This document shows, in pieces, positions 1,575-23,395 of a stretch of DNA of 64,000 nucleotides. The stretch lies in contig CM059431.1 of assembly GCA_030390025.1 (NCBI GenBank), positions 121,088,001 through 121,152,000 on the forward strand, given 5' to 3'. This DNA is from Squalus acanthias. Lineage: Eukaryota. Numbering within the stretch: position 1 is the first letter of the stretch; each line of letters opens with the position of its first letter. The notes beneath the pieces are model-generated. The model did not search any database. It saw nothing but the letters and a program-made list of their open reading frames with translations, and was not told where the DNA came from. A program made the translations under genes and the position numbers.

Positions 1575-3221
1575 TGTAGAATTCGCAAAATTATCGCGAT
1601 TTTATAAAATAAGAAGGAGACATAAAGTTTCGTACAAACAGCTTTATTTCAGCAGAATGCTGTCAGGTTTCAAAGCGGACACAAACAGCCTGTAAAATGG
1701 CCGCCACGCCTCATGGCAGAACGTTCTAGACTTTCAATGGGCAGACAAGATGGCGTTCCAATAAACATTTGTGCAAGATCGTACAGGACTCAGCACATTT
1801 GAGATAATTGACAAGACATGATGGGTTTGCATTTTATACATAAATACTGGAATCGGTCTCCCAGGTGCGAATAAGGGCTATTGTACCGAGCGATCAAGAA
1901 CCCATCCAAAGACATTAATATGCAAAATCCCCACGACTCTACGATGAGAGAGCCGTTTGCGGGTAGTTACAGAAAGCATTTGGAAGCCCCAAAACCCCTC
2001 CAGGTTCCACAATGGGAGAAGTATTAACGGGTACTCAGACAGTTACAAGTATCACCGAAACCCATTAAAAACGGAGATCACCCTATACAAGAAGTTTGAG
2101 CACCAAAACCCTGACAAAAGATAGACATTAAGATTGGGCGGGAAAAAGAAGAATTACAGCACTATAACTGTAAGGTACAACCGTCCATCTTTCTCTCTTG
2201 CCTCTTGCTACTCTTGCTGCTGACTGCTGTCTCTGCTTCTTTTTGCACTTGCTGCTTTGACTCGCTGGAAGACTGTTGAACTTTTATTCTCTTGCCTGAC
2301 GGCTCTGGACTCTGATCCGCTAGGATCAACCTCGTGGCTTGCTGCGAAGATCTGTCTAGAACTGGGCTGTGAGGCCTTGAAACGGGCACACCATCCCGAG
2401 AAGTCGGTAAACGGTGTTGGAACCGAAGCCCCGAGAGGAGATGAGATGAGATGAGATGAGATGAGAAGAGAAGAAGACGACAATACGTATCGCCACGGTC
2501 AGTAAGCCCCGACCGCGCCTGTAAGTCGAATAAACACTTCCTTGCCCAGGAAGACTTTTCTTTGAATTTTACAAACTGGTGAGGGCACAGGAAGACTCTT
2601 CTTCGAGTAGTATCGGAACTCCGAGGACAACACAGATCTTCATGACAGCAGACGGTCCAGCCTGCTAGCCGGAGCAGAAACGAGTAAACAAGTGGGGTAC
2701 AGAGACCCCTGATCAGCACGTGGATAGTCAGGTGCTGCGGTAAAAACATCCGAGCAGAGTTTCGGAATTCTCCGAGTTATCACGAGTGGTGAGCATGAGT
2801 CTCGATCCTACAAATCTAGATTAGGACAGATATTGATAGGGGAGGGTTTAAGTTTTAAGGATAAGTATAATGTGTGTCCCTTTTTACGATGTGTCATGTG
2901 CTCCTCGTTTCCCTAAAATTAGTTACATAACTGTGTGTAAGATTGTACTGTCATTAATCTGTGCTTATGACATGTATCTCGTAATCTTGAATAATATGCA
3001 ATAAAGATTTTCCATTTCGCACTATTCGACCGGGTCTACCTGAGTTTCTCTGCATTATTGCTCTCGCACCTAAGTCCTGTGTCAGAACCGTAAGGGCGAG
3101 TGGGTCGAACCACTCACAGGTGTCTAGTGTTACCAGGCTGGCTGGAGACCAGAAGAGGCAACAAGGCCTAACCTCGCACTAGCACCCAGGCTAAGCACAG
3201 AGCCACAGGTCACCCCTTACA
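1575..3221 (+). mobile_element. Solo LTR (~1.65 kb), family A
   Basis: Starts TGTAGAA and ends CCTTACA. 4-bp TSD AGGG at 1571-1574 and 3222-3225. TATAA ~2163, GGTGAGCAT ~2788, AATAAA 3000-3005. Termini and U5 motif are shared with 36739-38438. Confidence 0.9.
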
Positions 3222-3737
3222 AGGGGGAGGGGAGGGGGGGGGAGGGGGAGGGGAGGGGAGGGGAGGGGAGGGGAGGGGGAGGGGGGGAGGGGAGGGGGAG
3301 GGGAGGGAGGGAGGGAGGGGAGGGGGAGGGAGGGGAGGGGGGAGGGGGGAGGGGGAGGGAGGGGAGGGGGGGAGGGAGTGGGAGGGGGAGGGGGGAGGGG
3401 GAGGGGGGAGTGGGAGGGGGGAGGGGGAGGGGGGAGAGGAGGGGGGAGTGGGAGGGAGGGGGGAGTGGGAGGGGGAGGGGGAGAGGGAGGGGGGGAGAGG
3501 GAGGGGGGGGAGAGGGGGGGGGAGAGGGAGGGGGGGAGAGGAGAGGGGGAGGAGAGGAAGAGAGGGGGAGCAGAGGGGGAGAGGAGGGGGGAGAGGGGGG
3601 TGAGAGGGAGGGAGAGGAGGGGAGGGAGGGGGGGGAGGGGAGGGAGGGGGAGGAGGGGAGGGAGGGGGAGGGGAGGGGAGGGAGGGAGGGGGAGGGGAGG
3701 AGGGGAGGGAGGGGGCGGAGGGGGGGGGAGGGGGGGG
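3222..3737. repeat. G/A-rich polypurine low-complexity tract (G-quadruplex/triplex prone)
   Basis: About 515 nt of almost only G and A. It is the source of the spurious poly-Pro and poly-Gly ORFs. Confidence 0.95.
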
Positions 3738-4393
3738 TGTTTTTGTGTCAGCTTTGCCTCTGACTTCTGAGCGTTTCGAATCGCTCCCACGCCCTTGGTT
3801 CTAGACCTTGGACTTATTTGTGGGTTGTGATACAAAAGGTGCAGCAGACAACTGAGTTTGATGAAAGAACTTCAATCTTTATTCAAGAAAGTAAAACAAA
3901 ACACAAACACTCTTAACACTCTAAAGGTGGGGTACACTTCGGTACAAGTGAGGGAAATAACATTAGAAGAATACTTCACCCCTCCCAACCCCACTTCACT
4001 AGCTAGGTTGGACTCTGGAGAATCAGGGATAATGCTCACCAATCAAATCTTTGACAGTTGAGAGTTAGGGTTTAGAGTCTTTTGAGTAAAAGGTTTCGTA
4101 AGGCCCTTGTTGCCGCGAGGTGTCCGATGGTCACTGAGGCTGGCCGCTCTGGTTTCTTCTTGCGTGTCGGCCTGCTTCTGGAGCTGTTGGCCTTCTTTGT
4201 TGAACTGTTTCTGTTGAACTCTGCCTCTGTTTAAACTGTCTTCTTCCGAGCTGTGGAACTGTCTTCTTGCAGAACTGTGGGAACTGCCTTCTGCCTGCTT
4301 GTTGAACTTGAACTGTTTAACTGGAGAACTGGAGAACTCCCTTCTTACGGAACTGTCTTCTTTAACTGCCCAACTTGCTTCTCCTGAACTCTG

Positions 4394-4612
4394 ATGTGGA
4401 GATGCCGGTGTTGGACTGGGGTGGACAAAAATGAGAAGTCGCACAACACCAGGTTATAGTCCGACAGGTTTATTTGAAATTACGAGCTTTCGGAGCGCTG
4501 CTCCTTCGTCAGGTAAAGTGAGGGAATACAAATCAGTTACAAAGCATATATAGACAGAGAACAATGTGTCTGCAGAGATACAATCCGTCAGGGATTGTCA
4601 AACCGTCAGTAA
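4394..4612 (-). mobile_element. 5'-truncated Penelope-like (pLTR) insertion
   Basis: Absent from the other LTR. 12-bp TSD TCCTGAACTCTG (4382-4393, 4613-4624). Has the same terminus as the 9060 insertion and contains a hammerhead core. Confidence 0.85.
4480..4516 (-). ncRNA. Minimal type I hammerhead ribozyme
   Basis: Minus strand reads TTAC-CTGACGA-A-GGAGC-AGC-GCTCC-GAA-AGCT-C-GTAA. This gives the CUGANGA and GAAA boxes, a 5-bp helix II, a palindromic AGCU helix III and a 4-bp helix I. Confidence 0.85.
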
Positions 4613-5330
4613 TCCTGAACTCTGTAATTCCAGCACTGACTTCTGCTGAAAACAGGCTTTCAAATTGAACTGCAGAACTGCCTTCTGTTGAACTTGAACT
4701 GTTGTTACGGTTTTTTTTGTTGAACTGCTTGATGGGCCTTCAATTATACTAAATTGAAGTGGCCTTATCAAAACCAAATCAAATCCCGGTCATTGTAAGA
4801 CCTCGTTAACAGTAACGACTTTACTAGCATGTTAACTGGTTTTGTAAATGTGTGAAGTGGTTTCAGGATAGCTCCATCCTGTCGATCTGTTGTTTAATCG
4901 GAGTTTGAATTGTCCTCATGTTTTGGGTTTCTTGACTGGGCCTAAGACTTCGATCGAATATTTGCTTTATGCATGTCTTTAATGGGTTCTGTAATCGGTT
5001 TGATGGGACCTGTTGTTTTGGGTGGGACTGTCTCCTCCTAGGGTTTATTGTCAAAATGTTAATGCTTGCTGGGGCTTGAGTGAGGTCATCCCGATTCCCC
5101 AGACAATGCAATTAACTGCAATACCCAAAACTGCTTTTGCAGAGGTTGAACCCACTTTCTTTCGCATCCTTTTCTCCCTTTACAGGCCCAGACATGTTTT
5201 AAAATGCCAAAACTTGGTTTTTGGTCTTAAATTCCTTATGTTAGGCCCAAATGCATTTTTATCACTCTGAGGTAGTTCCAAGGCCTTTTTCCTTAGGGTT
5301 AGGGGATCTGCAAATTTTGGAAACCTTACA

Positions 5331-5340
5331 GTCCCTCCTG
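5331..5340 (-). promoter_or_regulatory. Short polypurine tract
   Basis: CAGGAGGGAC immediately precedes TGTAAGG of the 3' LTR on the minus strand. Confidence 0.7.
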
Positions 5341-5616
5341 CGATACTTTAACTCACTACAGTATCATTGTGGGTGAACAAAATTCCTGATCCCTGAAGAC
5401 CCAACCTTCCGCTGTATTACCGAGACTAAAACCCAAAAACATACATTCCCCTTTTTGGTGTAGTGTTCCAATACATACAGGTAAGAATCAATAATACATA
5501 CACATCCAAGCACGGTGGGGGTCCTACACCCCTAGCAAAACTATAGTACATACATAGTAAAATAATACACGATCACAAACTTTATGCATTTTAATAAAAA
5601 CAAATTAAGGCTCGCC

Positions 5617-5766
5617 CTAAACCTGGCCATAGGCTTTATTGCAATGCTGGTCCCATGCTTTCTCATGTCGGGATCGGAGCACTCTGTCCTTTCCCTTGCA
5701 TTTTGTGCACAGCAAGTCACCGATGCTCACCCCTACCAGGGCGAGCAGGAGTAGAACCTTTCTCAT
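5617..5766 (-). CDS. 49-aa signal-peptide ORF in the env position (env remnant or accessory peptide)
   Basis: MRKVLLLLALVGVSIG|DLLCTKCKGK... has a basic N-terminus, a hydrophobic core and a small-residue cleavage site. It is preceded by the acceptor TTTTGTGTGTCCCTACAG (AG at 5781-5780). Confidence 0.5.
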   Translation of the reverse strand: MRKVLLLLALVGVSIGDLLCTKCKGKDRVLRSRHEKAWDQHCNKAYGQV

Positions 5767-6055
5767 GCCGATTTCCTTTCTGTAGGGACACACAAAACAG
5801 ACAGCCATGTCCCGAGAAGGTTCTTTGGCTTGACAGGTGATCGATTCTCGAGAAACTTTCAAACTTACTCACTAAAATCCTTAATTCTTAAAAATCCTAA
5901 AACTACGAAACTGTAAAATACTAAAATACATTAAAACTCTGTACATTCGCCGCACGTCTCCAGACGGCAGGGCTAAATCCTGTATGGCCTCTGCCTTGGG
6001 CAGCTTCTGAGCAGCCGGTAAGGTGGCCTGTACCGCAGGACCCTGAGAGTCCTTC

Positions 6056-7073
6056 TTAGAGCAACTGAGGGTTTCCCTGAATCCCTGACAATCCCGGGAG
6101 TGTCCCCTCCTTTGGTGTGGCTGCTGAGTCCCTGTCCTGTCCTGTGGGTTCCCCGCAGCCTGAGGCTGCAGGCTGGGGATCCCTAACTTTTGAACGCTCC
6201 CTGGCCTTGGGCACTCCTTTTCGGGTTGCAGCCTCTTTTGGGCTGACCCACTGATGTACCGGTGACCACGGCAGTTTAGGCTGTGGTGTGCGAGGAGACC
6301 TTCTCAGGACTCTGGCCACTGCGGGTGTGCCTGAGTCCCACAAAATCGGTGGAGTGTACCCTCCTGTGATACCAGCCACGGTCCCTGTCGCTGCAGCCTG
6401 TGAGTCTGCCACAGCTGCTGGCTGGGGATTTCTAACTTTGGGGTGGTTCACCTTTGCTGACTGTTCCCTTTTCTCGGGTTTAAACAGCTTACACTGGTTA
6501 ATCTCCCACTCGTGGGTTCTCTGGGGTTCTAACAGCAGCCGATTTTTCTGGTGCTGGCTCCCCAGGTTACTGGCTGCTTGCCAGTGAATCTGTTCTAAAA
6601 TCTCGTCCGCTGCCCTGAACGGACCTTCTGTATGGACTCCCCATTCTCTCTCTTTACCAGGACGGCCTTAAGGACGGGATCCTGGGCTTGGACCTGCTTT
6701 AAGTACGGGGGCAAAGCTACCCCGTGTGCCTCCCTTGACCCGGATTGCGGCTACCGGACCTGCTTTATAGGGATCCCAGAACTCTCCTTCCCTGGCCCCC
6801 TGCTTGGCCCTTTTGGTTACCCTCCCACGTGGTATGGAGGGATCCTAAATCTATGTTCAAAGGTTTGGACATTGCCCCAGCCTGCTCGTTCCCTGTGAAC
6901 TCTATTATGCTAAATGGGAGCTTGTTAGACCTGGGTGAATTGGTCGGCTCTTCCGAATGGACCACCGTGCTGGAAGCCCCGGTGTCCACCAAATATCTCC
7001 TCTGCACCGTCTCCACCCCCATCTTACCATCGTATTCCGGGGAACACAGGTAGACAGGCTGCGCTGGTTCTAG
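6056..7073 (-). pseudogene. pol: pro-pol remnant: aspartic protease N-half fused to RNase H C-terminal, pre-integrase linker and integrase C-terminal fragments
   Basis: Contains the YLVDTGASST protease motif. Shifting frames then give EGNQK..AKQGAREG, LKQVQAQDPVLKAVL, ILEQIHWQAASNLG and INQCKLF. No RT (YxDD) or integrase DDE core fits in the 1 kb available. Confidence 0.75.
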
Positions 7074-8894
7074 TCATAGATCTGCGTTGGGTGGGGCAGA
7101 TGGGATTACAGCACCAATGGCTGTAGCTACCTTCCCTGGGCCATCAAACAGGACTCTGATGGCCGCTACTATTGTGTCCAGTGTGGGGGAAGAGGTCGGT
7201 GCCTCTACTTTTCGGGCAGAAGCTGGGGAATTCTTTGCTAGGCTATCCTTCCAGGGATTTCTACAGTCCTTCCTCCAGTGCCCACTCTTCCCGCACCCGA
7301 AGCAGTTACACTTCGTGTCGGAAGGGTTACTCCATTCCTGGTGCCACTGTTTCTTACCCTGGCTGGGTTTTATCTCATGCACCTTCCCCTTGGGTGGATG
7401 CTCCTCTGCACCTCTACCGTTTCGGTAAGCTAGCGTCAGTTGTCTGACTGTCTCTTCGGTGCCCCGGGGGTCCCTTGGGTCAAACCACAGCTCGGCCTTG
7501 GCCCTGATCCGTGGCAAGCTGTTCGCCACCAGACTTCGGAGCCAGTGGGCCAGCTCATCCTGAGTCAGGAGAGATCTGTCGAGAGCCCCATTACAAGCAC
7601 TCCTGTACACAGGCCACAGTCGGTCTGCGAAAGCCTGTGAGGTCTCCCCTACTAGCTGTGTAGTCTTCTCCACCCTGGAGAAAGGACTACCATCGTTCAT
7701 ACCCATGGCCTCCAGGACTTCCTCTCTGATAGCAGCATATCCACCCTGCCCTCTTTTACTCTCTGCGGAGAGGGACTCGTAGATTTTGCTGTCCAGTGAG
7801 AACAGGAGCATTTTTGCCATTTCGGCATCATCACAGACATTGATGCCTGCTGCCTGTTCCACTTCCATGAAGTGGACTGAGGGGTCTCCCTTTTGGGTAA
7901 GTTTACTCAGGTGGCTTACCATAGCCCTAAGCTGTTGGGTACCGTGGGGAGCCACAAATTAATTTTCAAGGGGTCCCTGACCTCCACCACCAGCGGGCGG
8001 GCCAAACTTTTGCTGTCGGGCTGGGCACATCGGCCCCGGCCCCGACTTTTCCTGCTTTGGTTCGCCCTCCCCGTCCTGCTGCCAGACCAAGTCAAAACTC
8101 GGCTCCACAGGTGGTGGTGTGTCCTCCCTGTCAGCCTCACAGATTATCTGCCCCTCCTGCTGCCTAACTAAGCTTCTCCTTGGCGCCACAGGTGGTGGTC
8201 AAACAGTTTCCCTTTGCTCTTCCAGGCCTTCCTGGGCCGCACCCGGGCTTATCAGGCACACCATGCCTTTTGCCTTAGACAGGGCAAGGTTCAGACTCTC
8301 AATCTGCTTCTGACAGGGGCCGTGGTCTCCCACCTCAAACTCCCTAGTACTGGCTACTCTGCAAGCTGTCTGAACGTCTTTTAACTTTTCTTTAAATTCC
8401 CTTAATTGCTTGGCAAGGCGGGTGTTCTCTTCCCGCAATGCCAGTTCACTACTTTTGGCCTCGGTGGCCTGAAACTGGAGGTATCCCTTACTGGCACGGT
8501 GTTCCTCTATTATCTGCAACTGTTCCTGATCTTTTGAGTTTAGCTCTGCTAATAACCTTTCCCCTGCTATAGCCCTAGCACGGGACAGTTGGCTTGCTTC
8601 CTTTAGCTCTTCTGTGAGAGTCTGAATGCGCTTCCCCAAAAGCTGCATCTGTTTCTGGGAGCAGACCAACCATATGGCCTTTTCCACAGATTTATTATAT
8701 TCCTTGCTCTCAGTCCATGTAGCTGCAGCGTCCATAGGACGTTCAGCATGCAACAGCCTGAGTATCCATTTCTTGGTTATATTAACCTTTTTGTACACAT
8801 AGGAGGACATCCTCTCTTCCATTTTTGTTCTCTCCTCAAAAACAGCATCTACTGCTTCACAACCCTTTTGCCAAGGTCCTGCTGCGATCGCCAT
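7074..8894 (-). pseudogene. gag: gag (coiled-coil, capsid-like region, CCHC zinc knuckle) with two in-frame nonsense codons
   Basis: ORFs 8199-8894, 7959-8189 and 7074-7955 lie in one frame, split by TGA (8201-8199) and TAA (7961-7959). CFGCGKSGHWRKDC matches Cx2Cx4Hx4C. Confidence 0.92.
8877..8893 (-). promoter_or_regulatory. Primer binding site (tRNA-Ser-like)
   Basis: TGGCGATCGCAGCAGGA starts 3 nt after the 5' LTR end. Its complement TCCTGCTGCGATCGCCA resembles Ser tRNA 3' ends. The tRNA identity is tentative. Confidence 0.75.
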
Positions 8895-9144
8895 TATGTA
8901 GGGGGTGGTGTTTTTGTGTCAGCTTTGCCCCTGACTTCTGAGTGGTTGGAATCGCTTCCACTCCCTTGGTTCTAGACCTTGGACTTATTTGGGGGTTGTG
9001 ATACAAAAGGTGCAGCAGACAACTGAGTTTGATGAAAGAACTTCGATCTTTATTCAAGATGTGGAGATGCCGGTGTTGGACTGGGGTGGACAAATGTGAG
9101 AAGTTGCACAACACCAGGTTATAGTCCAACAGTTTTATTTGAAA

Positions 9145-9181
9145 TCACAAGCTTTCGGAGCGCTGCTCCTTCGTCAGGTGA
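9145..9181 (-). ncRNA. Minimal type I hammerhead ribozyme
   Basis: Minus strand reads TCAC-CTGACGA-A-GGAGC-AGC-GCTCC-GAA-AGCT-T-GTGA. Confidence 0.85.
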
Positions 9182-9710
9182 TTTCAAATAAAACTGTTGG
9201 GGGTAAAAATTCACTTGGTTGCGCCTCCCGTTAGCGCCTTAAGAGGGCGCTAATGGGGCGTTAAGCCGCTAACGCCCGGGCGCAGCGATGTTTGCGCCGC
9301 TCGAGAACTTAACTTGAGATTGTGCGGCGGCGCTAAAACTTACCGCTGCGACCACCTGCGCGCGCAGATTATGACGTCATTCCATGGTGCAACGCCCTTG
9401 GGGCGCCCCGGAGCGGAAATTGAGTGGCGCCCCCTGCCTTACCGCCTGGCGCTTCCAACGACCGGAAGACTGGAACGCTATCAATCGGTGTGGGGCTGGG
9501 GGGGGCGCTATTTAAAGGGGGCCTCTTCCTGTCTTTTTCTGTGGTCGACATTTATGCACCACTCGTTCTGAGAGAGAGAGAGAGATTCGGAGAGAGAGAG
9601 AGAGAGACTTCTACATTGACTCAACGCTTTGTGAGGTAGTTTTGCCTATTCATCCTAACTTTGTTGCTACTTTAGTTGCTGTACCTCATTACTTTTCTGG
9701 CAAAGAGAAT

Positions 9711-10871
9711 ATGGGGGCTGCAATGATTGGGGGCGTCGTCCTGCTCCAGCTGAATCGGAGGATACAGAGACGCAGACAGAGAGTGGCAATGATGGCCAGA
9801 CGGAGGAGGGCCATCAGGCGCATGTACAGGAGAGCTTACCCTCCCAGGGTATATCGTGAACAGCTCTCCTACATCCATATGTCCGAGGAGCTGTGTTTGC
9901 GAAGGCTGCGATTCAGCAAGGAGGTGGTCACTGAGCTCTGCCACCTGCTGCAGCCAGATCTGCAGCCTCAGCTGAGGTCCAGGACGTCTCTGTCGGTGGC
10001 AGTGAAGGTCACAGTGGCTTTGAACTTCTACGCCACTGGCTCATTCCAAGCTGCTGTTGGGGACCTCGCCAATATCTCCCAGTTTGCGGTGCATCGCTGC
10101 ATCCGGCAGGTCACCAATGCCCTCTTCAGAAGGAGATGAGACTTCATCTCTTTCCCTATGACCCCAGACAAGCAGCGTGACCATGCTCTGGGCTTTGCGA
10201 GGGTAGCGGGCTTCCCCATGGTGCAGGGCGCCATTGACTGCACGCATGTGGCTTTGCGTGCTCCGCGAGAGAATGCAGAGGAATTCAGGAACAGAAAGGG
10301 GTTCCATTCCTTGAATGTGCAGTTGGTCTGTGACCACAGACAGGTGATACTCGCTGTCAATGCCCACTATCCGGGCAGCTGCCACGATGCTTTCATCCTG
10401 CGCCAGACTACTGTGGCAGAAGTTTTCGAGGCACCGCATCAGCCAGTTGGTTGGCTTCTCGGGGACAAGGGGTACGCATTGAGCACCTGGCTGATGACAC
10501 CACTCCGTACGCCAAACACCCCTGCTGAGCTGCGGTACAATGAAAGCCATCAAGCAACCAGGAACATTATTGAGCGCACAATCGGCGTGCTGAAACAACG
10601 GTTCCGCTGTCTGGACCATTCCGGAGGAGCCCTGCAGTACTCGCCTGAGCAAGTTTCGAACTTCGTAGTCGTGTGCTGCATGTTGCACAACATGGCAATC
10701 CTCAGGACCCAACCAATGCCACCAGGCCTTGTAGCACCACCAGAGGAGGAGGAGGAAGAGGAGGAAGAGGACGAGGATGATGATCATCAGCAGCACCAAG
10801 GCGGGAGGGCGGCCCACAATGGTCAAACTGCAAGGGCCGTCCGTCAACGGCTAATAGCAAGCCGCTTCTAG
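9711..10871 (+). pseudogene. Harbinger DDE transposase (HARBI1-like, ~386 codons) with one in-frame TGA at 10137-10139
   Basis: Motifs GAIDCTH, NRKGFHSLNVQLVCD, YPGSCHDAFIL, GDKGY, IERTIGVLKQRFRCL and CCMLHN. The two ORF halves are in the same frame. Confidence 0.95.
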
Positions 10872-12495
10872 GGCCCCTGCCATTGCTACAAACACTAATC
10901 AACCCAGCACGCAACCCCTAAGCCGGCCAAGGCACCAATAATTCCAACCACCAGCCATGTATATTTTGAATACAGAAACTTATTTATTTTACAAACTCTG
11001 TGTGTGTCAATTCCTCATGACAAACTCATAGAAATAAACACAAAAAAACAGTCAATAACATAACTGGTTCTCACAACCTGGAGATAATGTCCAAAACACT
11101 AAACAAAAGTTGGACCATGAACCTCGGCCTTTAATAAAAAAATGACCAGCATTTTGTCACACCTCCTACTTTTTGCCCTTCGAGGGTGATCTCCTTCCCT
11201 TGCGCACTTCCCCCCTTCTAACCCTACTGCTCCTCCGTAATGGGACCTCAGTGGCTGCAGCAAGGCTGGTGGAAGGCTGCTGCTCGTCAGACCCTGACAC
11301 TGCAGATGCCCCTGAAGGACGGCCTCAACCACTTCTGGGCCTGGAGGGCCCGGCTGCAGACTGCACCAACTCTGCATGGGCGGCAGCAGTCTGTCCTACA
11401 GGCGGTGGCAAGTGCAGTGGAGAAGTGACAGTGTTGGCAGCAGGAATGCTGTCATCGTGAGAGAGGCCAGCAACTCCCTGCTCGCCCGACACACTGGCAC
11501 TCCCACGGGGCAGCACTTCAGCATCCGGAGCAATCTGCCGGAGAACAGATTGCTGGCCTGCTGCGGCGCGGTGACAGCCCCGGGGACATGTGCACGAACC
11601 ATCGAGGTTGGCAGCAGTCTGTGCTCGCGTGGCCTCCATCTGAGTCTGTATGAGAGCAGTCAGAGGTGGGATCACGGCAGCCAGTGACTGAATTGCAGCA
11701 CTAAGCGTTAGTCTGGCATCTGCCTGTGCTACAGCGAAGTGCACCACACTCCTTGCCAGTGACTCAATGCATTCGGGCACCCTTCCCACTGCACCCATGA
11801 GCTCAGTGTGCATGCCCACCGCCTGGGTGTTCATTTCTGCAATCAGCCGCTCCTCCTCTGCGTCCATTGCAGTAGGAGTGTCTGGCATACTCTCCCTCTG
11901 GGAAGAAGGCCCCCGTTCTTCCCTACCCCCCCCATGGCGTTGCTGCAGCCCGCTGGGTCCTGGAGCTTCACCATCATCAGCCCCTTCCCCCCTGCTCCCC
12001 TCCGGGGAACGCGTGTTCCCAGTGTGGGCATGGGCTTCCTCGGGAGAGGGTGGCACTGATGCTCTGGCTTCCTCTTCCTCCTCAGCTGCAGCATCACTCC
12101 CAGTGGCAGCTTCAGGGCCCGTCTCCTCAGCTGGTGAATCACCATCTGAAAGCAGGGAGGTACAAGAGTGGCTTTAGCGTGAGGACAGGGTGGCAGTAAG
12201 GGAGGAATAAGTGCAGCGAGTTAGCAAGTTGGATTGAAAGTGTCAAAGGCTGGTGTTGTGAGGGACAAGTGGAAGGACAGAGGACAAAAAGGTGATGACC
12301 TTACCATTGCTGTCCACAACGGGGTCGGCGTCTCCAGTGGTGACGGGACCGATCACCCGGCTTGCCACAATCCTGTGGACGCGCTCCTCCAGATCGCTGA
12401 GGGGTTGCAGCTGAAGCCGCCGTCCACCTGTCCATTGCTGCTGTCTCCTATTATGAGCCAGCTTAGCCTGTAAGAAAAAGGACAGCATCTGAGTA

Positions 12496-12641
12496 AATAT
12501 ACAGCCATGGTCTTGCCTGATGTGCCTCCCATAGGTGAATAGCCCTTACAATATACAGCCATGGTCTTGCCTGATGTGCCTCCCATAGGTGAATAGCCCT
12601 TACAATATACTGCCATGGTCTTGCCTGATGTGCCTCCCATA
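12496..12641. repeat. 54-bp tandem repeat, ~2.7 copies, in ORF2 intron 1
   Basis: Unit AATATACAGCCATGGTCTTGCCTGATGTGCCTCCCATAGGTGAATAGCCCTTAC. Confidence 0.95.
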
Positions 12642-12644
12642 GCT

Positions 12645-13075
12645 GAAACATAGAAACATAGAAACATAGAATCCAGGAGCAGGAGTAGGCCATTCGGCCC
12701 GTCGAGCCAGCTCCACCATTCAATACGATCATGGCTGATCATCCAAATCCAGTACCCTGTCCCTGCTTTAATCCCCACAGTACACATATTCCACCCTACC
12801 CCCGTAACCCCACGTATTTAATTCCCCCTAACATATCCCATCCTATCCCCATATTTAATCCCCCCCGAACACTAAGGGTCAATTTATCATAGCCAAATCA
12901 ACCTAACCCGCACATTTTTGGACTGTGGGAGGAAACCGGAGCACCCGGAGAAAACCCACGCAGACATGGAGAGAATGTGCAAACTCCACACAGACAGGCA
13001 CCCGAGGTCAGATTCGAACCCGGGTCTCTGGCGCTGTGAGGCACCAGTGCTAACCACTATGCCACCGTGCAGCCC
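12645..13075 (-). mobile_element. tRNA-derived V-SINE (HE1-like) with CR1-type tail
   Basis: A-box TGGCATAGTGG, B-box GGTTCGAATC, V-domain GTGTGGAGTTTGCAC..GGTTTCCTCCCAC, and a (TTTCTATG)n tail shared with CR1 3' ends in this window. Confidence 0.88.
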
Positions 13076-14041
13076 TTACTGTATGCAAAGTGTGGAATGT
13101 GTGTGTGTGTTTGATGAAAGGGCCATAGGTGTTGGATGAGTGTTGTGCATTGGGGTTTTAAGACCCTCTGGCCATAGAGTGAGGTTGAGATGGAGGGATG
13201 GAGAGGTATTGAGAAAAAGCCACTCACCCTGACGACCCGAGTGAGGTCGTTGAACTTTTTGCGGCATTGAGTATGGGTCCTGGGCACCATGCTCCTGGAG
13301 GAGACGCTCTGAGCCACCTCCCTCCACACTCTTCTGAACTCGCGTGGCAAAGGCCTCCTGCCACTCTCAGGGAACAGCATACATCGTCTGCGCTCCACTG
13401 CGCCAACCAGAGTATCCAAGGCCCGCTCGGTGAAGCGATGAGCGCGTTCTCTCACCCTCTCCATGCTTGGCAGCAAAATGGTTTCACAGGTCTCTCCAGG
13501 CTGAGATTCAAGGCTGCAATGAGCAGGGTGTGGCTGGGGAGCAAGTGGCCCCCCCCGCTTTAAGAAGTGTCCGGCGCCAGTGTGTCTGTGTTCCCTCGCT
13601 AACGGCAGCAGCTGCGCTGCGCTCGCGCGCTGAGTTAGCGCCTCACTCCTTGGCCTTTGCGCCTTAAGACAGGTGTGCAGCGCCTGCTTTAGCGCTCCAC
13701 TCACCTCCCGGGGCGGTAAAAGTGAAGTTTCCTGTCAGTGCCGATAATTAGCGCCAGGCGCTAATATTTGCGTCCGGACGATATTTGCGCCCCAAATGGG
13801 GCGCGACCTAATTTCTACCCCTTGGACTATAACCTGGTGTTGTGCGACATCTTTATTCAAGAAAGTAAAACACAACACAAACACTCTTAACACTCTAAAG
13901 GTGGGGTTCACTTCGGTACAAGCGAGGGAAATAACATTTGGAGAATACTTCACCCCTCCCAATCCCACTTCACTAGCTAGGTTGTACTCTGGAGAACCAG
14001 GGATAATGCTCACCAAATGAATCCTTGACAGTTGAGAGTTA

Positions 14042-14885
14042 GGGGGAAAAATTCAGTTGGTTGCACCTCCCGTTAGCGCCTTAAGAGGGCGCTAATGGGG
14101 CGCACAGCATCTAGCGCCCAGGCGCGGCGAAGTTTGCGCCGCTCGTGAAATTAACTAGACATTTTGCGGCGGCGCTAAACACTACTGCCACGATCTCCTG
14201 CGCCGGCAGATATTGAGTGGCGCCCCCTGCCTTACCGCCTGACGCTAGCAACGACAGGTTGAGGGGAGCGTTCTGCAGTCATGAAGGGAAAGGGGGAGCG
14301 TTATTTAAAGGTGACCGCTTCCTGCCTTTTATTGTTGGTGCCATTTTTGAACTACGCATTCTGAGAGAGAGAGGGAGAGACTTCTGGAGAGTTTCAACGT
14401 TGTGTGAAGGAGTTTTGGGTACTGAGCAGCACTTTGCAGGTTCATTTTGATTTGCCATTCCTTGTATCGATTTAGAAGAGACTGTGGGGGCTGCATTCTG
14501 AGCTCTTGGCCTGGTACTCTCCATTGTTCTTTCCAGCACATTTGATGTGCAGGTCTCTCCAGGCCGAGATTCAAGGCTGCAATGAGCAGGATGTGGATGG
14601 AAAGCAAGATTAAACATCCCCTTTAAGAACTGGCCCGTGCCATTGTGTGTATGTTCCATTGCTGACTGACATTACATGAGCTTCGCCAGCGCTCTGAGGT
14701 AACGCCTTGCTCCTCGGCCTTTGCGCCTTAAGACAGGTGTGAAGTGCCTGATATAGCGCTGCAATCACCTCCAGGGGCGATAAAAGTCAAGTTTGCAGTC
14801 GGTGGCGTTAATTAGCGCCAGGCGCTAATCTTTGCGCCCGGCCGATAATTGCGCCCCAAATGGGGCGATACTGAATTTCACCCCC
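14042..14885 (+). mobile_element. Non-autonomous Harbinger (MITE)
   Basis: TIRs GGGGGAAAAATTC / GAATTTCACCCCC, TSD TTA. Absent from the 3' LTR and homologous to the ends of 9200-13821. Confidence 0.92.
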
Positions 14886-16894
14886 TTAAGGGTTTAGAGT
14901 CTTTTGAGTAAAAAGTTTTGTAAGGCCCCTGTTGCCGCGAGGTGTCTGATGGTCACTGAGGTGGTCGCTCTGGTTTCTTCTTGCGTGTCGGCCTGCTTCT
15001 GGAGCTGTTGGCCTTCTTTGTTGAACTGTTTCTGTTGAACTCTGCCTCTGTTTAAACTGTCTTCTTCTGAGCTGTGGAACTGCCTTCTTGCAGAACTGTA
15101 ACTGTCTTCTTGCAGAACTGTGGGAACTGCCTTCTGCCTGCTTGTTGAACTTGAACTGTTTTACTAGAGAACTGGAGAACTCCCTTCTTACGGAACTGTC
15201 TTCTTTAACTGCCCAACTTGCTTCTCCTGTAGTCTATAATTCCAGCACTGACTTCTGCTGAAAACAGGCTTTCAAATTGAACTGCCAGAACTGCTGTCTG
15301 TTGAACTTGAACTGTTGTTACTGCTTTTTTTTGTTGAACTGCTTGATGGGCCTTCAATTATACTAAATTGAAGTGGCCTTATCAAAACCAAATCAAATCC
15401 CGGTCATTGTAAGACCTCGTTAACAGTAACGACTTTACTAGCGTGTTAACTGGTTTTGTAAATGTGTGAAGTGGTTTCAGGATAGCTCCATCCTGTCGAT
15501 CTGTTGTTTAATCGGAGTTTGAATTGTCCTCATGTTTTGGGTTTCTTGACTGGACCTAGGACTTCGATCGAATATTTGCTTTATGCATGTCTTTAATGGG
15601 TTCTGTAATCGGTTTGATGGGACCTGTTGTTTTGGGTGGGACTGTCTCCTCCTAGGGTCTATTGTCAAAATGTTAATGCTTGCTGGGGCTTGAGTGAGGT
15701 CATCCCGATTCCCCAGACAATGCAATTAACTGCAATACCCAAAACTGCTTTTGCAGAGGTTGAACCCACCTTCTTTCGCAGCCTTTTCTCCCTTTACAGG
15801 CCCAGACATGTTTTTAAAATGCCAAAACTTGGTTTTTGGTCTTAAATTCCTTATGTTAGGCCCAAATACATTTTTATCACTCTGAGGTAGTTCCAAAGTC
15901 CTTTTTCCATAGGTTTTGGGGATCTGCAATTTTTGGAAACCTTACAGTAGATTGTATTAGCTCCGCAGTTGGCTATTACAGTGTCTTTTCAACTGCTAGC
16001 CATAAATATATAAAGGTTAATGGGCAAACATTTCCCTTCTGCATCTCAAATTGATCACTCTCTGACATGAATGACTGGGAATTACCTGTACATGAAGCAG
16101 CCTTCATTGTGATGTCTATAGCATTTTGAAGGCACGACTCTGCTCTATAATTGCTACATTGGAGCCTGATCAACTTTTTATTGACAACTCTGGTCATACA
16201 ATGTCAAAAATACAAAATTAAAATGAATACTTACTATTTTCTTGTTAGTCCTGTTGGGTATGTGCCATAAGTTTTCTGTCTCAGCAATTAATTAAGTTAA
16301 GCTTGGTCTATTGTCTTCATGAGAATGGAACTGCTCCAAAATACTTACCATGCTTAAAAATATGATTGGGTAAAATTTCCGGCCAATGATATTAATTTGT
16401 CAGTGCAGTCTGGGCAGCCATATAATAGCATGTTCTCAAATTCTTCAGCTCCCTGCTTGTTTTGCGAACTGTGAATCCTTCCATTCCTGGTTTCCCACCA
16501 GTGCTTGTTCTCATATTGAATGTATAAAAGCTTCTTTAGATGTTCAACATTCATTCAAATGAGGAGATTATGATTCCTTCCTCGATTTCCCAGCTTTCCT
16601 GTCCAGTGCTAACTTTGTCCATTTAAATCCTACAAGATTACTACTTGTCTGGAAGGGAGCTCTTAAAGGTACACTTTTTTTTTTTAACCTGCCATTCCAC
16701 TGCAAGTTATGGGGTTTGCTTTCAAAGCATCTCTTCGAGTGATTTCATGGAAGAGGATGAAGTATGTCAAAGAAGGCACCAGAGGTGGACTGTCTGAAAC
16801 TACCAATTTGTCAGCAACCATAACTGCAGGCCCAGGCACAGTTACCTAGCAATGACTGAGGGAGAACCTACTTCTGCAGGCTCCAGTTGAGCTG

Positions 16895-16994
16895 AGTGCT
16901 GACGAAGGGTCATCGACCTGAAATGTTAACTCTGTTTCTCTCTCCACAGATGCTGCCTGACCTGCTGAGTATTTCCTGCATTTTCTGTTTTCAT
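16895..16994 (+). mobile_element. 100-bp Penelope-like insertion (second family) starting at a hammerhead ribozyme
   Basis: 13-bp TSD TCCAGTTGAGCTG (16882-16894, 16995-17007). Core CTGACGA-AG-GGTC-ATC-GACC-T-GAAATGTT at 16899-16927. Confidence 0.85.
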
Positions 16995-18825
16995 TCCAGT
17001 TGAGCTGTGCCATCTGTTGCTAGGAGATCTGCAGCTAACCTCAACCATAGGAACAGCAGTGCCAATTGCAGTCAAGGCCACCTCCTCCTTCAGCTTTCTG
17101 CAATATCTGCTGACTTGCAGCCCATAGATGCATCGAACAAGAGATTGATGCATTGTTCACCCAGAGCCAGTATATTTAATTTTCTTTCCCACAGAATAAC
17201 AATAGGGCATGACACAACTGCTCAATATTATAATACTGCTACATTAACCAAAGTAATGTAGGTGCCTAATGGCATTCATGTGATTCTCCTCATTTGTCAA
17301 TGTCATTGACTCCTAACTAGTGCACAGTGACTCATTCAGTTCTACTTCCTCAAGCTCATTAGTTTCATCCTCCTTGCAAATAGCTGTGCTGATTCTTGAA
17401 AATGTTGGTAAGACTGCTGCAGGGTACTATGAGGTATTGACTTGCTCGAGGCCCCTGCCAGTGCTGACAGGCTCACCTTTCAGTAAGAGCATAACCTATT
17501 TTTGAACACTGGCTGCAAAAAACACCTTCAACCGAACTTGTATTGCAGGATACTGTTCTACTTTTCGGAGTGTCTTCGTGGTTGTGCGTCAGTGACTTGG
17601 AAGTCATAACAAGAGCGGGATGTTACTAGCCCTGAGCTTGGGAAAGACTTTCAGTGCTTCTTCCCCTTTCCCTCAATACGCTTGAATGTCCAGAGTGGCC
17701 TTCTCAAAGAAAACCCAGGATTTGGAATTTCTGGGCCCTCCTCCATTTTGGTCCTGTTACCTTTTATTGTACGCCATCTTTTCCTGCAAGTAGTAAAGCA
17801 TTCTTTAAGGACTGCATACAAGGTTAAATTCAACAATTTTGGACTACCAATAAGGGGGCTGCGCTCAAAAGGACTGTGGTTGATGTTAAGGCTATAATAC
17901 TGCAGCATCAATTCTCTGACTTGTGTTCCTATCTATTGTGGCTCCCTGCTAAGAATTTACTCTACAATGACAAGATATGTGCTTAAACTGAAGCTCACCT
18001 TGTGTGTCAGTAACTGTGCATTGCGCAGTTAGGTTATATGAAAGGTTGTGCTGTGTGAGGCCCCTTTAAGATTTCAACGTGACAGCAGTTTCAGATGTAA
18101 GTTGTAGCCTGTATACATGCCACACTACTGCATGACCATACAGGCTAAACATTGAAAAGACTGTGAGGTTGGGTGAAAGTATTAAAGTGTTGAGCAGTAA
18201 CAGGTATTGAGGACATACTGTACTTTGTTTCGTGAATGCTTGGGAGAGATTGTTGCTGTAGTATTACTTTGGCACTTTTCCTCAGTTCTGCCATCTGCTT
18301 CCACTTTTGCAGGCAAAGCCTCTGGTGCTGCAGTGATCTAGTCAGTTATTCTATCAAGTGTACTTGATGTTCTTTATTATTGATGGGCAATCTATTCACT
18401 CTTTGCTATCAGTTATATGAATTGATGCTCTGTCTGTCTAGTCTTCTCTGCCTATATCCATTGGTGTTTACTATACAGATGGGAGCTTATCCCCCAGTAG
18501 TGAACCCATGAAGGCACAGGAGGTATCTATAATGTTAAAACCAGCGTATCAGACAAGTTGTGTGGCATCCTGGTGCCTGAAAAGTTTGGGTATATGTGCT
18601 GCTCTGGAACCTGCTTGGAGTCAAAACCTTCTCATGACAATGTCAGTTTATGTCAAACGGGGCTTCTTTGGTAGCTATGCTACAATTATTTCACCACTTA
18701 TGCTAGTTGCAAATTGGGTATATCCCTTCAGGAGCCCACACCATGCCGTACAATTTGAACTAACAAATTTCAAACATTTTACATCAGTACCAAGCAATAC
18801 TAACAGTCCAAATCAACCATATATA

Positions 18826-20445
18826 AGAACATAAGAAATAGGAGCAGAGTAGGCCATTCGGCCCATCGAACCTGCTCCACCATTCAATAAGATTGTGGCT
18901 GATCTTCTATCTCAATTCCACCTTCCCACACTATCCCCATATTCCTTGGCTCCCTTAGTATCCAAATATCTATTGATCTCTGTCTTGAATATACTCAACT
19001 GAGCATCCACAGCCCTCTGGGGTAGAGAATTCCAAAGATTCACAACCCTTTGAGCGAAGACATTTCTCCTCATCTCAGTCCTAAATAGCTGAGCCATTAT
19101 TCTGAGACAGTGATCCCTGGTTCGAGACTCCCCAGCCAGGGAAACATCCTCCCAGCAATGTTCCCTTTAATTTTGCGTGGTTTTTCCTATTTAAAAGCCG
19201 ATGAGCTGGCTGTGCAGGAACTGTAGAGTGCCTCGCGGCCGCACAGCTTAAAGGGATCTTTGCCTCCCAGCACCTATCCTGTCAAGCCCCTTAAGAATTA
19301 TATATGTTTCAATGCGATCACCTCTCATTCTTCTAAACTCTAGGGAACATAGGTCTAGTCTACTAAATCTCTCCTCATAATAGGACAATCACCCCATCCC
19401 AGGAATCAGTCGAGTAAACCTTCTAAGGCAAGTATTTCCTTCCTTAGGTAAGGAGACCAAAACTGTACAAAGTAAGACTTCTTGGGGTAGAAATTAGGTC
19501 GCGCCCCATTTGGGGCGCAAATATCGTCTGGACGCAAATATTAGCGCCTGGCGCTAATTATCGGCACTGACTGGAAACTTCACTTTTACCGCCCCGGGAG
19601 GTGAGTGGAGCGCTAAAGCAGGCGCTGCACACCTGTCTTAAGGCGCAAAGGCCAAGGAGTGAGGCGCTAACTCAAAGCGCTGGCGAAGCTCATGTAATGT
19701 CAGTCAGCAATGGAACACACACACAATGGCACGGGCCAGTTCTTAAAGGGGATGGTTAATCTTGTTTTCCATCCACATCCTGTTCATTGCAGCCTTGAAT
19801 CTCGGCCTGGAGAGACTTGCACATCAAATGTGCTGGAAAGAACAATGGAGAGTACCAGGCAAAGAGCTCAGAGTGCAGCTCCCACAGTCTCTGCTAAATC
19901 GATACAAGGAATGGCAAATCAAAATGAACCTGCAAAGTGCTGCTCAGTACCCAAAACTCCTTCACACAACGTTGAATCTCTCCAGAAGTCTCTCCCTCTC
20001 TCTCTCAGAATGCGTAGTTCAAAAATGCCACCAACAATAAAAGACAGGAAGAGGCCCCCTTTAAATAGCGCCCCCCCCCAGCCCCACAGCGATTGATAGC
20101 GTTCCAGTCTTCTGGTCGTTGGATGCGCCAGGCGGTAAGGCAGGGGGCGCCACTCAATTTCCGCTCCAGGGCGCCACAAGGGCGTTGCACCATGGAATGA
20201 CGTCACAATCTGCGCGCGCAGGTGGTCGCAGCGGTAAGTTTTAGCGCCGCCGCACAATCTCAAGTTAAGTTCTCGAGCGGCGCAAACATCGCTGCGCCCG
20301 GGCGTTAGCGGCTTTGCGCCCCATTAGCGCCCTCTTAAGGCGCTAACGGGAGGCGCAACCAACTGAATTTTTACCCCCTTTACTCTTATACTCCAATCCC
20401 TTTGTAGTAAAAGCTAACATAGCATTTGCTTCTCAATTGTTATAC
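18826..20445 (-). mobile_element. CR1 LINE 3' fragment, interrupted by a MITE
   Basis: FRTEMRRNVFAQRVVNLWNSLPQRAV motif and a TTCTTATG-type tail at ~18826. Confidence 0.88.
19484..20377 (-). mobile_element. Non-autonomous Harbinger (MITE)
   Basis: TIRs GGGGTAGAAATT / AATTTTTACCCC, TSD CTT (19481-19483, 20378-20380). Arms are near-identical to 9200-13821. Confidence 0.93.
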
Positions 20446-23395
20446 TCCAATACAGACTGCTAATTAAGAGCAAGTCCAATCAGTACCAGATAAAAGAAAT
20501 CTAAGGTGCGGAATGGTACTAAGTTGGTGAAAAAGAAGCATTCTGTTTCTTTCAGTGCTGACGTCATTACCACTAAGATTTTTTTTTTCATATTCCCATC
20601 TGTAACACCAAACAGCACGAAGCATGATTTTAAATTTCAGCTTAATGTCTGCAAGCTCCCACTCAGCTGGCTGGGTAGATGGGAACACGCCAAAAATACT
20701 TAATTATGGGGAAACCTTGTGTACATGTCTGGTAGATGTATGGAAGCATGCGGTTCCCTCCGCCAATTCACCCAAAACAGAATTTTTACCCTGATAATCG
20801 ATATAGAACATACCATATTTCTGAATATTTCTATTGAACTTCCTTCCGCTATTATTGTTGTTTTTAAAGCAATTAAGCAGAAATTTGAACTTCGAAGCAT
20901 AGATACATAAAGTCACATGTTAAATATTTAAAAAGAGAAAGCCTGGGGCTGTTTTATTCATATGATATGGGATCTGATGCATTGGGCTAGAAATTTATCT
21001 CCTTACCAACACTCCGTAGTGCCAAGAAATGGCGATAAAATGGCGGCCGTCGCTCTTTCGCCAGCTAGTGGTTATGTTACTGGGCTAGTAATCCAAAGGC
21101 CTGGACTAATGATCCAAGAGATGTGAGTTCAAATCCCACTACGGCAGCTGGGGAATTTAAATTCAGTTAATTAAATAAATCTGGAATAAAAAGCTAGTAT
21201 CAGTAATGGTGACCATGAAACTATCGGATTGTCGTAAAAACCCATCTTGTTCACTAATGCCCTTTAGGGAAGGAATTCTGCCATCATTACATGGTCTGGC
21301 CTATATGTGACTCCAGACCCACAACAATGTGGTTGACTGCCTTCTGAAATGGCCTAGCAAGCCATTCAGTTGTACACAACCGCTAAGAAAAACAATAAGA
21401 ATAAAACCGAACGAACCACCCGGCATCAACCTCAGCACTGGCTATGGACACGGCAACAGCACACCCAGCCTAGGCGACCCTGCAAAGTCCTCCTCACCAA
21501 CACCTAACGACTTGTGGCAAAATTGGGAGAGCTGTCCCACAGATGAGTCAAGCAACAGCCTAACATAGTCATACTCACAGAATCATACCTTTCAACCAAT
21601 GTCCCAAACTTCTCCATCACCATCCCTGGGTATGTCCTGTCCACACGGCACAGTGTTATACAGTTGGGAAGGAGTGGCCCAAATTTGACTCCGAACCCCA
21701 TGAAGTCTCATGACTTCAAGTCAAGCATGATGGGCAAGGAAACCTCCTGCTGATTACTAGCTACCACCACCTCTCAGCTGATGCATCAGTACTCCTCCAT
21801 GTTGAACACCACTTGGAAGAAGCACTGAGAGTAGCAAGGGCACAGAATGTACTCTGGGTGGGGGACTTCAATGTCCATCACCAAGAGTGGCTCGGTAGCA
21901 CCACTACTGGCCGAGTCCTGAAGGACATAGCTGCCAGTCTGGGCCAGCGACAGGTGGTGAGAGAACCAACATGAGGGAAAAACCTACTTGACCTCGTCCT
22001 CACTAATCTACCTGTTGCAGATGTATCTGTCCATGGCAGCATTGGTAGCAGTGACCACCACACAGTCATTGAGCAGACAAAGTCCCTTCTTCACACTGAG
22101 GACACCCTCCATCGTGTTGTGTGGCACTACCACCGTGCTAAATGGGATAGATCAGAACAGATCTAGCAGCTCAAAACTGGGCATCCATGAGGCACTGTAG
22201 GGCAGCAGCAGAATTGTATTCCACCATAATCTGTAACCTCATGGCCTGGTATATCCCTCACTCTACCTTTGCCAGGAGACCAACCCTGGATCTATAAGGA
22301 GTGTAGAAGAGCATGCCAGGAGCAGCACCAGGTGTACCTAAAAATGAGGTGCCAATCTGAGGAAGCTGTGACATGCATGCTAAAAAGTGGAAGCAGCATA
22401 CCATAGACAGCTAAGCAATCCCACAATCAACAGATCAGATCAAAGCTCTGCAGTCCTACTACATCCAGTCATGAATGGTGGTGGACTATGAAACAACTAA
22501 CAGGAGGAGGAGGCTCCATGAATAGCCCCATCCTCAATGATGGTGGAGCCCAGCACGTGAGTACAAAAGACAAAGCTGAAGGGTTTGCATCCATCTTCAG
22601 CCAGAAGTGCGAGTGGATGATCCATATCAGCCTCCTCCCGAGGTCCCCACCACCACAGAAGCCAGTATTCAGCCAATTCGATTCACTCCATGTGATATCA
22701 AGAAACGGCTGAGCGAACTGGATACAGCACAGGCGGATAGATGTCAGTGTTATAGCTGTACAGGAACAGCTTGGCTAGAGGCGCGGCTAGTTCTGGAACA
22801 CTAGCCAAGCTGTTCCAGTACAGCTATAACACTGACATCTATCCGACAATGTGGAAAACTGCCCAGGTATGTCCTGTCCATAAAAAGCAGGACAAATCCA
22901 AACCGGCCAATTACTGCCCCATCAGTCTACTCTCAATCATCAGCAAAGTGATGGAAGGTGTCATCGACAGTGCTATCAAGTGGCTCACCAATAACCTGCT
23001 CACTGATGCCCAGTTTGGGTTCCACCAGGACCACTCGGCTCCAGACCTCATTACAGCCTGGGTCCAAACATGGACAAAAGAGATGAATTCCAGTGGTGAG
23101 TTCAGAGTGACTGCCCTTGACATCAATGCAGCATTTGACCGAGTTTGGCATCAAGGAGCCCTAGTAAAATGGAAGTCAATGGGAATCGGGGGGGAAACTC
23201 TCCACTGGATAGAGTCATACATAGCACAATGGAAGATGGTTGTGGTGGTTGAAGGTCAATCATCAGGGAACTGTCCTAGGCCCAACCATCTTCAGTTGCT
23301 TCATCAGTGACCTTCCCTCCATCATAAGGTCAGAAGTGGTGATGTTCGCTGATGACTGCACAGTGTTCAGTGCCATTCGCAACTCCTCAGATAAT

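Follow-up and report, generated by a model that had tools for sequence, protein, structure and literature searches.

To which lineage of long terminal repeat (LTR) elements does the element at positions 5331 to 8896 of a 64,000-nucleotide stretch of the Squalus acanthias genome belong? This stretch, here called the window (GenBank assembly GCA_030390025.1, contig CM059431.1, positions 121,088,001 to 121,152,000 of the forward strand), had been read from its letters as carrying a deleted member of an intermediate, lokiretrovirus- or Odin-grade lineage. All of the hallmarks listed in that original prediction were found, on the minus strand: gag and the protease gene (pro) in one frame split by a stop, a C-terminal remnant of RNase H, a splice acceptor and a signal-peptide open reading frame (ORF) between pol and the polypurine tract (PPT), and long LTRs with an internal donor-like site. 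The lineage named for it did not hold. We read the element as a copy, dead and non-autonomous, of an endogenous retrovirus (ERV) present in high copy number, the family of which is canonical by its reverse transcriptase (RT), belongs to an early-branching grade of snakehead retrovirus (SnRV)-like or class III type and has its nearest kin in frogs, coelacanth and turtles; to this reading we assign a probability of roughly 85%. The Squalus acanthias family of the window element is referred to below as the shark ERV family, and provirus numbering follows window positions on the minus strand, where the provirus spans 3729 to 15946 and the interval 5331 to 8896 is exactly its internal region between the LTRs. 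Papers are cited by accession number, and what is said of them concerns the portions of each source that were accessible.

A gag query yielded 7070 first-look candidates in the 3.7-Gb genome and an env query 7843, neither figure being a copy number. Out of 133 scored gag matches, 20 copies were fetched, a sample biased by having been picked for likeness or long frames. Three of these relatives (L010, L014 and L021) carry pol and env, the other fetched copies lacking pol, env or both. According to Pfam, pol of the relatives encodes a protease, an RT with a YVDD motif, a tether consisting of a degenerate Gypsy-type RNase H (PF17917/PF17919), a second RNase H (PF00075, E of about 1e-19) and an integrase. 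Their layout, LTR-primer-binding site (PBS)-gag-pro-pol-env-PPT-LTR with tether plus RNase H and a short target duplication, is that of canonical Retroviridae. Integration would yield duplications of 4 bp, as seen in five of seven copies (of the other two, one yielded no 5' end and one had differing flanks); in the window copy the duplication is unreadable because the 3' end is eroded.

The RT set was drawn from two homolog searches, with 240 listed proteins, plus one foamy-like ERV of the same genome. In this set, P0136 is SnRV Pol, which matches both the SnRV RT of the PMC7947760 supplement and a 10,688-nt contig (L029); P0158 and P0038 were matched by eye to the published Loki-Lro and Loki-Aro RTs, and the labels class I, ERV-L-like and Gypsy were assigned by us from Pfam content, motifs and tree position. 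Four trees were built: a FastTree tree of 126 rows (181 of 242 matches were long enough, thinned at 85%), a quick mixture-model tree of 62, a careful LG+G4 tree of 36 and a careful mixture-model tree of 28. All four place the family within the canonical retrovirus clade (support of 98, Shimodaira-Hasegawa-like approximate likelihood ratio of 98, 100/97 and 99/96, respectively) and lokiretroviruses outside it (99 to 100); in the 28-row tree, which holds no Odin sequence, the family RT branches on the same side of the split from Loki as the canonical retroviruses. Closest to the family is a clade of frog, coelacanth and shark sequences (83/96 and 92/94), and RT identity is 51% to a frog sequence, 50% to coelacanth and Xenopus, 46% to turtle, 43% to SnRV, 34 to 37% to four Loki rows and 33% to the foamy-like ERV, a single long-branched row that does not group with the family in the 36- and 28-row trees. 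Approximately unbiased (AU) tests rejected a grouping of the family with Loki (p = 0.0013) or with Gypsy (p = 0.0028) and did not reject one with SnRV (p = 0.23). The motif LPQG is found in the shark ERV family, SnRV, foamy and gamma viruses, versus PFG in 24 of 24 Loki RTs of the published alignment, and a PDB ranking put an RT of the murine leukemia virus type first (197 bits), above foamy (178) and Ty3 (138).

The envelope, for which similarity to fusion (F) proteins had been raised as a possibility, turned out to be F-like in the relatives by profile, ranking and model. In L010 the longest env frame (P0001) encodes a signal peptide and a beta domain with two cysteines, along with a Thr/Pro stalk, an RQRR site and heptads, and the next frame encodes the membrane anchor and a short tail of 33 amino acids. 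Env relatives numbered 33, and those bearing names among ten proteins that were looked up belong to sharks, a skate and a frog. A 21-row Env profile matches paramyxovirus F (E = 5.6e-4) and SnRV Env (290 columns, 92%, E = 6.7e-7, versus 0.2% for the SnRV Pol control); pairwise BLAST against SnRV was not significant for Env (E = 0.34) or Gag (E = 0.034), and SnRV Env was reached by the profile alone. Atlas ranking of Env put F0 first (0.92). The structure model, with a mean predicted local distance difference test (pLDDT) score of 50 and a core of 70 to 87, matches F of human parainfluenza virus 3 and respiratory syncytial virus (E = 2e-7) and foamy Env (8rm0, Z = 8.4), itself described as F-like (PMC12583693), and its top eleven rows are all F-type. 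The predicted envelopes of walleye epidermal hyperplasia virus 1 (E = 1e-6) and walleye dermal sarcoma virus (E = 2e-3) match the model as well, so that epsilonretroviral Env may be F-type too. For an immunoglobulin (Ig)-like head there are a motif, one Ig_3 match (E = 0.0085) and a UniRef label on a relative, with a fold score (Z of 4 to 5) at background level. Env is predicted to be a class I fusogen of the paramyxovirus-F or foamy type, with a furin site, a short tail and, probably, an Ig-like head. The Pfam family PF00523 matches none of the 21 profile members, and a genome search with it returned nothing, its controls being silent too, which makes that search uninformative; the env remnant of the window copy did not match the Env core profile, as expected after deletion. 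In a literature search conducted mostly without subscription papers, no published link between SnRV or SnRV-like Env and F proteins was found. Two annotated sawshark proteins (P0247 and P0249) consist of Env pieces fused to zinc-finger or Niban-like host frames and may be gene-model artefacts or exonised env.

Transcription of the provirus would start in the LTR, and reverse transcription would be primed by tRNA-Arg(TCG) and the PPT. The PBS matches the 3' end of a tRNA-Arg(TCG) gene of the same genome without mismatch in 6 of 19 copies and with at most two mismatches in 16 of 19, a count that leaves aside L009 and L010, the 5' ends of which are unaligned. The arm of this tRNA has 422 matches in the genome, and genes for tRNA-Arg(TCG) and tRNA-Ser(GCT) stand in large tandem arrays with a period of about 1623 nt (L034 to L036, contig C26). 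Of 21 copies, 19 have TGA as the in-frame gag stop and 16 of the 21 have it in the context UGA-CUAG, and the same context, behind different codons, is present in all three examined copies of a subfamily with 73% DNA identity (L044 to L046). Because the context is conserved, we infer that Gag-Pol of the shark ERV family is made by UGA readthrough. UGA-CUA and UGA-CGG are the type II readthrough contexts of alphaviruses, and the same source gives UAG, UGAAGA, UGACGA and UGAAGU as retroviral contexts and lists readthrough for SnRV (UAG) and for retroviruses of fish (PMC13517186). The family differs from the alphaviruses in having the site at a retroviral gag-pro junction and without a supported downstream stem-loop, although hairpins behind the gag stop do recur at the same position in three subfamilies. 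The subfamily of L044 to L046 is a second one within the lineage and has long open pol frames at dozens of places. As for env, the only donor-like site by the pattern scanned lies in the LTR, being present in both window LTRs and in 10 of 11 others; since gag starts directly behind the PBS, a donor is hardly possible elsewhere. The acceptor was seen in 13 of 21 copies, the other eight lacking that part or being unaligned there, and the env mRNA would be spliced from the LTR-internal donor to this acceptor.

Relative to L010, the window copy has suffered three losses: in pol, most of the stretch from protease to RNase H and also the integrase core, and in env, about 2.2 kb. The last of these removed the ectodomain and membrane anchor, so that the signal-peptide ORF noticed earlier is an env remnant, 88% and 83% identical to the two ends of a relative's Env. 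The RNase H tail (6809 to 6658) is 80 to 81% identical to the RNase H end and integrase start of pol-bearing relatives; a small local deletion, previously unmentioned, has put the two parts of the motif quoted for it in different frames, and gag is interrupted by stops at 8199 and 7959. The pol junctions are common to 11 of the 20 fetched copies and the env junction to 2, the latter being spanned by 36 of the 40 best-scoring places for query 5340-6100 (self included, and selected for likeness). Since these junctions are shared between copies, deleted forms appear to have been copied as such, and we propose that they were mobilised by enzymes supplied in trans from full-length relatives. Judged from its junctions, the window copy is a member of a pol-deleted non-autonomous subfamily; it would descend from a pol-deleted form that later lost env while keeping gag and the cis signals, and would have acquired its stops and transposon inserts after insertion. 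In two other fetched copies that are pol-deleted (L009 6693-7913 and L019 6746-9757), the remaining protease stump is joined in one open frame of about 400 codons to the tails of RNase H and integrase, with env kept, and copies of this type are gag-plus-env derivatives without RT.

Several observations weigh against the canonical, SnRV-like placement and the features proposed with it. SnRV is the closest named virus but a supported sister in no RT tree, and "SnRV-like" is here the name of a grade, not of a tested clade; moreover, exogenous foamy viruses, class II viruses and Odin elements are absent from the RT trees. In the RNase H tree (built from the 31 of 49 rows with sufficient length and the foamy-like row; unrooted), the family stands with Loki and the foamy-like row, outside the Loki clade itself, and is opposed to SnRV and class I (96/94; 96/92 in another run). 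Integrase scores are higher for Loki (188 to 213 bits over five full-length rows) than for SnRV (127 bits). The Env model is weak overall, its best Z of 9.1 being barely over the tool background of 7 to 8; the hairpins behind the gag stop show no folding advantage over shuffled sequences (z of -1.67 to +0.39 over eight folds); and no LTR-to-env joint occurs among the joints listed for four contig sets of presumed-RNA runs, a result that is uninformative either way.

The lean of RNase H and integrase could mean that the family is a recombinant, in which a canonical RT was combined with RNase H, integrase and env from a Loki-like virus. Domain swaps have been reported for retroviruses (PMC7947760), the nearest group differs between the RT and RNase H trees, and in the integrase tree (46 of 49 rows) Loki nests, weakly, among the kin of the family (80/91, together with frog and coelacanth rows). 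Retention of the ancestral domains by a basal grade would, however, give the same picture in an unrooted RNase H tree and would account for the lean of both domains without recombination, and for integrase neither the RT-like arrangement (p = 0.16) nor one uniting the kin with Loki (p = 0.35) was rejected. The RNase H tree also recovered Loki with foamy (97/92), the grouping reported by Wang and Han (PMC7947760), and trees of both domains are judged unreliable in the accessible text of both Loki papers (PMC7947760 and PMC9040795). Env, finally, aligns with SnRV Env, and the searches for Env homologs gave no protein named after Loki. We regard recombination as improbable.

Less probable still, and in our judgment very unlikely, is that the family is itself a lokiretrovirus or Odin-grade element, which would be the first in a cartilaginous fish. 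The dual RNase H and the F-like Env with its RxxR site are shared with Loki, to which RNase H and integrase are related; the coiled-coil N-terminal half of Gag recalls zebrafish BHIKHARI, a non-autonomous derivative of the kind that lokiretroviruses have as well (bioRxiv 2024.03.25.586437); and there is a gap to fill, lokiretroviruses having not been found in six chondrichthyan genomes, Scyliorhinus torazame included, according to the PMC7947760 supplement, and nothing on point having turned up in our search of the literature on lokiretroviruses in cartilaginous fish. Against this stand the RT tests, the low RT identity and the lack of the PFG motif, and when a Loki Pol was used as the query, its best matches in the genome were to the family at only 37 to 38% (51 of 22,924 candidates scored, under a stricter first look). 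An Env relative at 62% identity exists in the Loki-negative Scyliorhinus torazame, as expected if the family scores as canonical. Odin elements are described as lacking env (PMC9040795), whereas the relatives carry it, and Odin identity was dropped. Dual RNase H, spliced env and F-like Env do not separate Loki from canonical retroviruses; of the "intermediate lineage" first proposed, a weaker form survives in the lean of RNase H and integrase toward Loki, while the RT is canonical. An ordinary Gypsy (Metaviridae) element with a chance ORF behind pol, suggested by the GPY/F-type integrase tail with Tf2-like SH3 matches in the relatives (PF24626, E = 1.6e-4) and by the automatic annotation of several relatives as "Gypsy integrase-like", is refuted by the second RNase H, the full env and the RT position outside Metaviridae, as the original prediction of a deleted, retrovirus-grade element had it.

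Among named viruses, foamy viruses share with the shark ERV family the F-type Env, the YVDD RT, the RNase H grouping with Loki and a donor (in the family a putative one) within the LTR, which in foamy viruses lies in the R region. RT identity to the foamy-like ERV of the same genome is only 33%, and a further difference is that the family has a Gag with a zinc knuckle and a Pol behind an in-frame gag stop; foamy Gag is knuckle-less, and foamy Pol is made from its own spliced mRNA. The foamy-like ERV family of the same genome (L031, L032 and L047) has 49 matches to the foamy protease family PF03539. SnRV has the same order of gag, stop and pol in one frame with readthrough, a coiled-coil Gag with one zinc knuckle, a YVDD RT and a homologous Env core, and the N-terminal end of its Env contains an Ig-like stretch similar, by eye, to that of the family. 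The two differ in that the family RNase H falls on the Loki/foamy side and its stop is UGA-CUAG rather than UAG; in that the family signal peptide is encoded within the env ORF and the putative donor is LTR-internal, while in SnRV the PBS is followed by a donor-like site and a short hydrophobic ORF; and in the Env tail, which measures 136 amino acids in SnRV (PMC12193657). No 3' accessory ORF was seen in the family when compared with SnRV. ERVs that cluster with SnRV have been described in elephant shark as CmiERV lineage I (PMC4422223 and PMC4977317), and over 38 integrase residues that lineage is, by eye, about two thirds identical to the family, with a neighboring group equally close; shark ERV RTs are reported to be mostly class III (PMC11089739).

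The two Loki papers offer four scenarios for the origin of retroviral env and, in their accessible portions, describe canonical and Loki envelopes as having no detectable similarity (PMC7947760 and PMC9040795). A lineage with a canonical RT and an F-type Env, tied to SnRV Env by sequence and to foamy Env by fold, favors an F-type envelope in the common ancestor and shows that an F-like Env is not diagnostic of a lokiretrovirus. We further speculate, as a tentative extension that we would not yet bet on, that the family and its frog, coelacanth and turtle kin are the deepest branch among the surviving canonical retroviruses, splitting off below SnRV, ERV-L and perhaps foamy viruses, and retain from the ancestor an RNase H, an integrase and an F-type Env that Loki shares. 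Were this the case, the common ancestor of all retroviruses would have borne an envelope resembling paramyxovirus F and used stop readthrough to make Pol, envelopes of the gamma and beta types would be later replacements, and the SnRV envelope would be a living example of the F type. These implications are tempered by the facts that SnRV-like ERVs are known in sharks, that foamy Env is known to be F-like and that the window copy is a decayed derivative. With thousands of candidate copies in one genome, the lineage should be easy to study with regard to its readthrough signal, its splicing and its trans-mobilised derivatives.

The features of the window copy are collected in Table 1. In Pfam, the gag zinc knuckle matches PF00098 (E = 0.013) and the protease PF13975 (E = 0.017); the structure model of Gag, made without an alignment, is poor (pLDDT of 48).

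Table 1. Coordinates of the provirus and of its insertions (window positions)
Feature	Position	Strand	Remarks
3' LTR	3729-5330	-	About 1380 nt minus insert; starts TGTAAGG at 5330; outer end eroded
Poly(A) signal AATAAA of LTR	3878-3883	-	Inferred
Splice-donor-like site TTG/GTGAGC, in LTR	4033-4042 (junction 4039)	-	Putative; upstream of poly(A) signal at 3883
Short non-LTR insert in 3' LTR	4393-4612	-	Hammerhead-like core
Polypurine tract	5331-5341	-	Abuts 3' LTR
env remnant	5617-5766	-	49 codons; signal peptide fused in frame to cytoplasmic tail; junction 5716
Splice acceptor, putative	5780-5803	-	Pyrimidine tract and CAG (at 5780), 13 nt ahead of env ATG (5766)
Integrase C-terminal remnant and pol tail	5976-6594	-	Mapped onto pol-bearing relative
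RNase H last helix and integrase start	6628-6824	-	Frameshifted in window copy
Protease N-terminal part (DTGA)	6825-7073	-	Truncated by pol deletion; 60% over 89 amino acids to relative's protease
gag stop, UGA-CUAG context	7070-7076	-	TGA at 7074-7076, between gag and protease in one frame; putative readthrough
gag	7077-8875	-	Coiled-coil N-terminal half, helical capsid region, one zinc knuckle; low-confidence model
Primer-binding site, tRNA-Arg(TCG)	8876-8893	-	16 of 18 matches in window copy
5' LTR inner piece	8897-9057	-	Ends TACA at 8897
Insertions within 5' LTR	9058-13848	.	Penelope-like piece bearing Harbinger DNA transposon (9200-13816, TTG duplicated; PF13359, E = 1e-39)
5' LTR middle piece	13849-14040	-	
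Non-autonomous Harbinger insert in 5' LTR	14042-14887	.	TTA duplicated
5' LTR outer piece	14889-15946	-	Starts TGTAAGG; 97% to 3' LTR

Rather than being short, the 5' LTR has been broken by insertions into three pieces, and a G-rich low-complexity tract (3171 to 3740) has taken the place of the outer end of the 3' LTR. Divergence between the 3' LTR and the 5' LTR pieces, by the Kimura two-parameter distance, is 0.036 over 1382 sites. By the two rates applied in PMC4422223, 2.2e-9 and 2.2e-10 per site and year, the insertion would be about 8 or about 80 million years old, a span that permits just "old." One short insert has entered each LTR independently, with a minimal core of hammerhead-like type and a partial copy in inverted orientation (4393 to 4612 in the 3' LTR; 9058 to 9199 and 13817 to 13850 in the 5' LTR). 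Such a core with an inverted partial copy is a trait of Penelope-like elements, which we take these inserts to be; an Rfam scan of 3000 to 21000 gave nothing notable, leaving the hammerhead-like core unflagged too. No host gene is evident, by eye, among the window ORFs of at least 170 amino acids, and several decayed fragments of long interspersed nuclear element (LINE) reverse transcriptase lie between 22756 and 53416. The Harbinger transposon in the 5' LTR encodes a HARBI1-type transposase with one stop, at 10137; similar sequence is found inside 3 of the 20 other fetched copies (L013, L019 and L022), and non-autonomous versions also occur in the window at 19467 to 20377 and near 59619.

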